Virus record (IMG/VR): IMGVR_UViG_3300045988_152699
DNA length: 64,000 nucleotides
Origin: a virus
Taxonomy: Duplodnaviria; Heunggongvirae; Uroviricota; Caudoviricetes
Strand: one strand, 5' to 3'
The translations under genes and the position numbers were made by a program. Below the pieces are notes generated by a model. The model saw only the letters and a program-made list of their open reading frames with translations, did no database searches and was not told where the DNA came from. How positions within the stretch are numbered: the first letter of the stretch is position 1; the number at the start of each line of letters is the position of its first letter. Below are positions 40,012 to 40,849 of the stretch, piece after piece.

Positions 40012-40821
40012 ATGCAAGAAGAGAAACAACACTACCTCTACGTTCTGGTGCCAGAGAACGGAGATACTTTTAAAATCGGCATTTCATGTGGTCCATTGGC
40101 ACGGTTTAAAGGGCTACAAGTGAGTCCCGATTTTGCGCTTTCACGGGTCTATCGTGGTACACGTTTGGCAATGGTTAATCTTGAGCGGGCTTTACACGCA
40201 ACCTTTTTCCCCTGGAATGCGCCGTGGGGGAAAAGCGTCGGTGGCGGGCATACTGAATGGTTTACACGAGAGTGTCTTGATAAGGTTTTGGCTCATATCG
40301 AATATCTAAATGATATGTGGGGAGGGATTCTCGAGCGCATTAAGTCGAATGATTTACTTCAGCGTCCAGTAGATGCTGCTTGCTCTTTCGAAAAAGAGCT
40401 GGATGTTACTTCTATCGTGACTTTCAAAGATGACGCAGGAATGAGGGACGTGGCTTATGTCTCCATATCTGGCTATGAACCGGACGCGATCCGCGCTCAA
40501 TGTGAATTGCTGAAAGCAATGTTTATGCTTCGGACTAAATATCCCTGGGATACAGGGCGGGTGTGCTTCCCTATGGAAGAGTTAACCGCCACCATTGATT
40601 CCCAGCTTTACCACGATAATCCAGAGAAGTTTTTTAGCCTTTTAGCCGGTAATGGGCTTAACTGTGTGTCCGGGCTGGGGCGAAGTAGAATCCAACATGC
40701 CTCGCTCTTCGGTCCCTTCTTTTACGATCGACACGGGTACTTTGAGGCTGAACTTCCGGCGCTTACGCGTGCTATAGATACTATCGATTTCGAACGATTA
40801 TTCGCTGCTCTTAGCAAATAA
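40012..40821 (+). CDS. GIY-YIG / T5orf172-like domain protein with uncharacterised C-terminal domain
   Basis: N-term HYLYVLVPENGDTFKIGIS...R...E...EWF; 269 aa. Confidence 0.55.
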   Translation: MQEEKQHYLYVLVPENGDTFKIGISCGPLARFKGLQVSPDFALSRVYRGTRLAMVNLERALHATFFPWNAPWGKSVGGGHTEWFTRECLDKVLAHIEYLNDMWGGILERIKSNDLLQRPVDAACSFEKELDVTSIVTFKDDAGMRDVAYVSISGYEPDAIRAQCELLKAMFMLRTKYPWDTGRVCFPMEELTATIDSQLYHDNPEKFFSLLAGNGLNCVSGLGRSRIQHASLFGPFFYDRHGYFEAELPALTRAIDTIDFERLFAALSK

Positions 40822-40828
40822 CACTGAT

Positions 40829-40849
40829 GCCCCTGAACGGGGCTTTTTT
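40829..40849 (+). terminator. Rho-independent terminator after the GIY-YIG-like gene
   Basis: GCCCC-TGAAC-GGGGC followed by TTTTTT. Confidence 0.8.

Follow-up and report, generated by a model that had tools for sequence, protein, structure and literature searches.

The window, by which we mean the whole 64,000-nucleotide stretch of DNA under analysis, is a P1-like phage-plasmid of the SJ46/RCS47 type ("p0111"). The region described here is 99.2-99.5% identical to phage-plasmids of the SJ46, JL22 and phi456 types and 98.6% identical to RCS47, all of which carry the "p0111" replicon (PMC9603915).

Comparison with reference P1 (NC_005856) using blastn delimits the replicon sharply. Homology extends from 36638 to 38628 at 95.3% identity and from 40888 to 44500 at 99.3%, and just one 59-bp match (76%), inside repA, lies between these flanks. 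Here, 2259 bp of the window stand in place of 1500 bp of P1, that is, a p0111-type replicon cassette (38629..40887) replaces the IncY cassette of P1 (L001:1998-3497). The homology ends ahead of the incC-type iterons and returns 66 bp past the stop codon of a nuclease gene, which therefore makes up the 3' end of a replicon block that was replaced as a whole. The left flank (upfB, ppfA, upfA and oriR) and the right flank (par and gene 23) differ in their identity to P1, as given above, and the two sides of the cassette thus differ in history relative to the reference.

The nuclease gene is the last gene of this 2.26-kb alternative cassette, which reads iterons, repA', iterons, nuclease gene and terminator. 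Five direct iterons with the core TTGACTRTRYGCGA (repeat family D1; 38653..38753, plus strand), spaced at 21-22 bp, are the incC/origin equivalent upstream of repA'. The repA' gene (38835..39719, plus strand) encodes a 294-aa initiator of the Rep3/RepFIB type, as assigned from Pfam, the identity matrix and the RefSeq annotation of SJ46 and RCS47. Its product is 42% identical to P1 RepA and, in Pfam, matches Rep3_C above the cut-off and Rep3_N slightly under it. The repA' coding sequence itself contains, at 39437-39452, a sequence resembling the iterons, TGTTGACTATAAGCGA, which matches the reference iteron at 94% identity. The incA-equivalent array (39720..39981; repeat families D1 and D3, inverted pairs I1-I25) comprises two direct copies at 39720-39759 and four inverted copies at 39839-39981, the last of which occupies 39963-39981.

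The nuclease gene opens with an ATG some 30 bp further on and runs from 40012 to 40821 on the plus strand, encoding 269 aa. Its product can be divided into an N-terminal T5orf172/GIY-YIG catalytic domain (residues 1-105; 40012..40326), an inter-domain linker (residues 106-126; 40327..40389) and a private, possibly Rep-WH1-like C-terminal domain (residues 127-269 and the stop codon; 40390..40821), all on the plus strand. The cassette ends, upstream of Ppar, in an intrinsic terminator (40829..40850, plus strand) identified by terminator scan and fold energy. It consists of GCCCCTGAACGGGGC followed by a T-run, with a 5-bp all-G+C stem and a fold energy of -11.2 kcal/mol. An earlier note on this DNA had described a reading frame with its own terminator at 40012-40849, located after the last incA-type iteron, and each of these points is borne out. 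A homologous terminator follows the nuclease gene of a related locus, L051; there, the terminator and about 40 bp beyond it are recognizably homologous (window 40822-40887, L051 5996-6060; GGGCTTTTTTRTGCCTTYC...CGTGCAA). The 3' end of the cassette is better conserved than the nuclease gene, the window and L051 proteins being only 25% identical. The conserved flank begins at 40888 with the P1-type par promoter/operator and parA (40888..42186, plus strand), including a Ppar-like site at 40907-40935 and a ParA that is 100% identical to that of P1.

The nuclease gene and its two domains

All of the GIY-YIG motifs named in the earlier note could be located in the 269-aa protein: YLYVL at residues 8-12, KIGIS at 21-25, R31, E58 and TEWF at 81-84. 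A profile search matched Pfam T5orf172 (PF10544) to residues 8-85 (E=2e-5) at 25.5 bits, above the curated cut-off of 20 bits, and three other lineage types of the family pass the same threshold. The N-domain shows the GIY-YIG alpha/beta fold. Across 130 relatives of the nuclease domain, G23, R31, E58 and E82 are invariant, and Y10, K21, H62, T81, W83 and F84 are conserved in at least 90%. By profile, fold and conserved residues, membership of the T5orf172/GIY-YIG superfamily can be regarded as established, with endonuclease activity itself being predicted.

In PHROGs, the whole protein corresponds to phrog_2876 (function unknown), its N-terminus also weakly matching an endonuclease phrog, and a PDB sequence search returned only a marginal GIY-YIG match (1ywl, E=0.15). 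No NCBIfam model matches the protein, no PADLOC-DB family does so at E <= 1, and Pfam Rep3_N and Rep3_C are absent from it.

The AF2 model that we used was built from an alignment of all four lineage types and reached a pLDDT of 72.5; a model from a 3-sequence alignment (pLDDT 51) was set aside. The pLDDT falls below 50 at residues 116-126, where alignments A1 and A2 are least conserved, and on pLDDT and conservation residues 106-126 are a flexible linker. The C-terminal domain, called uncharacterized in the earlier note and rightly so, is fast-evolving and confined to P1-like phage-plasmids. Its fold prediction comes nearest to the winged-helix WH1 domain of iteron-binding Rep initiators, albeit with weak scores and from a four-sequence model; a Rep-WH1-like winged-helix fold is therefore a possible reading for which the model is suggestive. 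WH1 is the dimerization domain of Rep proteins such as RepE and pPS10 RepA.

Two other readings of this domain were considered. Recent capture of a domain from the neighboring RepA' is ruled out, since the C-domain had no similarity to RepA' in BLASTP (E >= 3), and hhalign gave a probability of 0.2%, that is, noise, both against P1-type RepAs and against 28 Rep3 proteins. A zinc-finger (CapR-like) DNA-binding domain, the kind that most T5orf172 homing genes carry, is likewise ruled out, as no Cys of the C-domain is conserved in all four types.

The only recurrent Pfam partners of the nuclease domain among the 130 relatives are Rep3_N (four proteins) and Rep3_C (two proteins), the remaining partners being single HTH, winged-HTH, RHH or zinc-finger domains. 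P0017 joins T5orf172 to Rep3_N, and P0049 and P0119 join it to both Rep3_N and Rep3_C; the latter two, together with P0154-P0158, make up a family of T5orf172-Rep3 fusions in metagenomic phage contigs. Neither P0049 nor P0119 was found in IMG/VR. In a 58.9-kb myovirus-like metagenomic contig (L052, 8617-11293), three 32-bp iterons in perfect register precede a Rep3 gene, and the P0049 gene follows after 20 bp. Over its Rep part, P0049 shares 47% identity with the DNA-binding region of the neighboring Rep, with the WH2 end 85% identical in nucleotides, and from these sequences the fusion resembles the product of a recent event in which part of the initiator was duplicated onto the nuclease. In L057 and L058, Rep3 genes are also directly followed by T5orf172 genes: P0160 begins 2 bp past its Rep3 gene, and the gene for the 271-aa P0034 overlaps its own by 11 nt. 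Since L052, L057 and L058 may be related elements, they should together be counted as one or two independent cases. A further relative (L059) has a plasmid-like context with no adjoining Rep.

The pairing of a rep gene with a downstream T5orf172 nuclease that bears a Rep-like or unknown C-domain thus recurs outside the P1 group. The Rep3_N-Rep3_C fusions resemble the window protein in three respects: they fall in its T5orf172 subfamily (E 1e-9 to 1e-4 against the window profile), they have its domain order, and they are encoded immediately after a Rep3 initiator gene in the same orientation. They differ in that their Rep3 WH1 and WH2 domains are genuine, score above the Pfam thresholds and share 47% identity with the neighboring Rep, whereas the window protein has a single, shorter domain in which no Rep3 sequence signal could be detected.

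Distribution and linkage to the replicon

The plasmid database PLSDB holds 398 records with RepA', 401 with the nuclease gene (all copies at >=90% identity) and 388 with the complete block. Among the approximately 398 RepA' records, no p0111 allele without the nuclease gene was seen, nor was an IncY allele with the window-type gene found; there is thus no direct trace of ongoing homing. Beyond this type, the family is very small. When 5.8 billion clusters were searched by word index and 1.84 billion representative proteins exhaustively by HMMER, only three further full-length relatives emerged. This makes four divergent types, all of which occupy the slot between repA and parA of P1-like elements and each of which is accompanied by a different RepA or iteron set. 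P0004 (in L003) is 44% identical to the window protein and lies beside a RepA that is 84% identical to the window RepA'. P0009 (in L049 and L050, from Salmonella) is 27% identical, its neighboring RepA being 83% identical to the P1 IncY RepA, and P0011 (in L051) is 25% identical, next to a RepA that shares 41-48% with every other type. Neither the P0009 and P0011 types nor the L003-type RepA is present in PLSDB.

The three relatives' loci share the order repA, iterons, nuclease gene, parA, parB and gene 23, and in all four lineages the start codon lies approximately 30-35 bp past the last iteron. L003 and L049 provide a second backbone pair. Their ParA proteins are 100% and their ParB proteins 98% identical, and the swapped block comprises iterons, repA, iterons and the nuclease gene, with its right end about 62 bp past the nuclease stop codon, as in the window and P1; the exchange boundary therefore lies 62-66 bp past this codon in both pairs. 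The G+C content of the nuclease gene equals that of repA in each lineage and differs from that of par wherever repA and par themselves differ (L003, 0.41 for repA and the gene versus 0.46 for par; L051, 0.47 versus 0.54). In three of the four lineages, no sigma-70-like promoter was found between repA and the gene, and no match is consistent across lineages, which suggests that the gene is probably co-transcribed with the upstream initiator gene, repA' in the window.

The nuclease gene is, on this evidence, a long-standing member of the rep module. The earlier note had parA directly following incA in P1, and NC_005856 agrees, with no gene between them and the nuclease gene absent. However, the proposal built on this, a single cargo gene inserted into the maintenance module of P1, is not supported, given that the whole block from 38629 to 40887 is replaced. 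Further points against it are the co-distribution of the gene with RepA', homologues that adjoin three other RepA types, a G+C content that tracks repA rather than par, and the failure to find a sigma-70-like promoter of its own in three of the four lineages.

In P1, the last incA iteron ends at L001:3326 and Ppar begins at 3517, approximately 190 bp on; tblastn and blastn-short searches of this spacer for a relic of the nuclease gene returned only noise. IncY-like replicons occur with the gene (L049) and without it (P1 and the IncY plasmids with P7-type par). Close to 150 IncY-type PLSDB records lose homology exactly at window position 40888. Some 230 PLSDB plasmids carry an IncY repA and incA 95-98% identical to P1, with homology ending exactly at the last incA iteron; in one, L060 (NZ_CP081744.1, 3501-5966), a P7-type parA (401 aa) begins 115 bp after that iteron. 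In P1-like elements, shuffling of rep and par modules at the incA|par junction thus takes place even without the nuclease gene, and because this junction is a module joint in its own right, the coincidence of the gene with an exchange boundary should not be taken as independent evidence for homing. The IncY-type P1-like plasmid pSvP1 (MN510446) is reported to have two ORFs, at 48,004-49,273, inserted between repA and parA (PMC6906374).

Divergence and natural inactivation

The nuclease diverges much faster than the proteins around it. Between the window and L003, RepA is 84% and ParA 89% identical, and the nuclease only 44%; the identities of its N- and C-domains are 63% and 34%, respectively. 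Across the four lineages, full-length identity is 23-44% and C-domain identity 15-34%, with the full-length ORF and every catalytic residue kept. The N-domains of L049 and L051 are 61% identical, their RepAs only 43%, a mismatch that hints at domain shuffling. The nuclease gene has a piN/piS of 0.31 across 41 near-identical loci (0.29 and 0.34 for its two domains), compared with 0.022 for repA, 0.002 for parA and 0.03 for parB.

Inactivated natural copies make up 8 of 45 and stem from at least four independent events. Internal stop codons are present in 7 of the 44 full-length copies through three independent mutations: W68* in L042, S112* in L027-L031, and Q228* in L022 (IMGVR_UViG_2974549561_000001, 103,445 bp; gene copy at 4324-5130). 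The eighth copy, in L045, is split by an IS200/IS605-type element. Nonsense alleles of repA, parA, parB and upfA number zero in the same loci. The nuclease gene is under some purifying selection yet clearly dispensable for plasmid maintenance, a mode of evolution that is typical of a conflict or selfish gene.

As to the L045 element, the insertion measures about 1.76 kb (8294-10058) and removes nucleotides 295-523 of the nuclease gene. The 389-aa protein that it encodes was judged to be IS200/IS605 OrfB/TnpB-like from its N-terminal sequence alone.

Possible function

Two precedents bear on the possible role of this gene. Odn (Gp88) of Vibrio phage ICP1 combines a T5orf172 domain with a RepA-like DNA-binding domain and cleaves the origin of a rival in an iteron-dependent manner (PMC8263062), and T5orf172 homing genes are found next to essential genes at exchange boundaries (PMC10448857). 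Our tentative reading, which we would put a little short of an even chance, is that the window protein is an Odn-like or homing-type, sequence-directed nuclease aimed at replicon DNA; its activity, its target and a competitive or homing outcome are all parts of what we infer here. The protein would be a two-domain endonuclease with the order of I-TevI, catalytic domain first and tethering domain last. The C-domain would anchor it on iteron-bearing origin DNA or on iteron-bound RepA, and the GIY-YIG domain would cut nearby in a co-resident related phage-plasmid that does not carry this cassette. Either the rival would be destroyed, or repair by recombination, using the conserved oriR and par flanks, would copy the whole cassette into it. 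Such a model fits the constant place beside the iterons, the linkage to rep and not par, the fast divergence of the C-domain, and dispensability with decay after fixation.

Several observations speak against this model: the C-domain has no sequence similarity to any Rep protein; the window and L003 have common iterons and C-domains that are just 34% identical; the IncY-linked type P0009 is very rare, though empty IncY sites are abundant; and there are no empty p0111 sites among approximately 398 records. A stronger version, in which the protein acts as a gene drive by docking on the iterons or RepA of a rival and cutting beside them, so that repair converts the rival's replication module (e.g., from IncY to p0111), we consider unlikely. 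If true, it would explain the swaps of replicon type among near-identical phage-plasmids that carry resistance genes.

The comparison with Odn should be drawn with care. Both proteins pair a T5orf172/GIY-YIG nuclease with a domain like the DNA-binding part of an initiator (PMC8263062), a likeness that in the window protein is a possible one, by predicted fold, and both genes share an origin in mobile elements and a rapid or modular evolution of the specificity domain. With Odn, as the closest known systems, we group the odn-like genes of coliphages Inny, Muut and Mt1B1_P17 (PMC10448857). However, the DNA-binding domain of Odn lies at the N-terminus, is of the RepA_N type and shares 42% sequence identity with the RepA of its target, whereas that of the window protein is C-terminal and Rep3-WH1-like by predicted fold only, with no Rep sequence similarity. 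Odn is encoded by an enemy of the targeted replicon and the window gene lies inside a replicon cassette beside its own iterons; the activity of Odn has been shown experimentally and that of the window protein is predicted. The likeness may be one of mode of action and not of homology, given that the sequence homology expected of an Odn was not found.

The second precedent lies in the I-TevI layout, T4 Seg, and the T5orf172 homing genes of ICP1 and T5-like phages (PMC10448857), with which the window protein shares the order of N-terminal catalytic domain, linker and C-terminal domain. As in free-standing GIY-YIG homing genes, the gene is small, has a weak ribosome-binding site and a terminator, and sits between essential modules at an exchange boundary, and natural copies are often degenerate. 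Unlike such genes, it has no presence/absence polymorphism within one replicon type, its C-domain is not the usual zinc-finger (CapR, DUF723, DUF4397) or HTH module, and the apparent mobile unit is the 2.3-kb replicon cassette, not the gene alone.

Three other explanations should be weighed against a replicon-directed nuclease. The earlier note had thought of phage exclusion or addiction, an idea that found no direct support; PADLOC gives no match. In its general form, this would make the gene defense cargo, an abortive-infection or exclusion effector that shields the lysogen from other phages, with its location in the replicon incidental. T5orf172 domains are indeed known from conflict systems (PMC10448857), and a single gene with a terminator, a fast-evolving C-domain, a piN/piS of 0.31 and frequent natural knock-outs would suit many accessory defense genes. 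However, neither PADLOC nor NCBIfam has a matching model, no defense genes flank the gene in the window, and the family, unlike mobile defense genes, is confined to one slot of P1-like replicons. The gene moreover co-varies with the RepA type, equals repA in G+C content, and has relatives that adjoin rep genes or are fused to Rep3 domains. We consider defense cargo an unlikely account. A second alternative is an accessory replication or copy-control factor, whose WH1-like domain would pair with RepA' or bind the incA iterons and whose nuclease would nick to aid initiation, resolve handcuffed plasmid pairs or switch the mode of replication. The constant position 30-35 bp or so past the last incA iteron in four replicon types, the probable co-transcription with repA, the almost 1:1 linkage with RepA' in PLSDB, and the predicted likeness of the C-domain to WH1, the Rep dimerization domain, all agree with this. 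Yet natural knock-outs affect 8 of 45 copies, with repA and par intact throughout, the IncY replicons of P1 and P7 function without such a gene, and the nuclease diverges far faster than RepA, with a piN/piS at least 10-fold that of the maintenance genes. We rate such a factor as improbable.

The knock-outs could also be taken at face value, the gene being the leftover of a former homing endonuclease that was fixed in every p0111 replicon and is slowly decaying with no present function. Inactivation of 18% of copies by independent nonsense mutations and an IS insertion, the raised piN/piS, and the lack of any remaining empty p0111 site as a homing target are consistent with this. On the other side stand the 82% of copies that are intact, a piN/piS of 0.3 that is well under 1 in both domains, and four lineages that, despite only 23-44% identity (15-34% in the C-domain), retain the full-length ORF and all catalytic residues. 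A functionless remnant thus appears very improbable.

The existence of the gene is not new, given that hundreds of records already annotate it. The only mentions found are at the level of annotation, namely an "unknown gene gp57" that replaces the IncY repA together with repA' (PMC9603915) and a "GIY-YIG nuclease" (PMC9037040); in the literature searched, no paper connects T5orf172 with phage-plasmids. As far as searched, what is new is that the family is confined, in all four replicon types, to the slot between repA and parA, that the gene belongs to the replicon cassette, that a Rep-WH1-like fold is predicted, that parallel pairs of rep and T5orf172(-Rep3) genes exist elsewhere, and that natural copies are often inactivated.

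Among the common carriers of ESBL and mcr genes in Escherichia and Salmonella are P1-like phage-plasmids, whose two replicon types, IncY and p0111, serve plasmid typing. At least 400 PLSDB plasmids carry the nuclease gene. If a replicon-linked nuclease directed at origins is the correct reading, it would offer a testable mechanism for replicon replacement, for incompatibility-like exclusion between related phage-plasmids, and for the mosaicism of rep and par within the group. The principle of Odn, in which a homing-type nuclease has borrowed a DNA-binding fold like that of an initiator, would moreover be extended from conflict between phage and satellite to competition between plasmids and to initiators of the Rep3 type. 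Should the gene be merely an ordinary, decaying homing endonuclease, the finding would be of modest interest. That rep genes are followed by T5orf172 genes in unrelated phage-like contigs too, in some cases with Rep3 domains fused to the nuclease, suggests that the arrangement is a general one.
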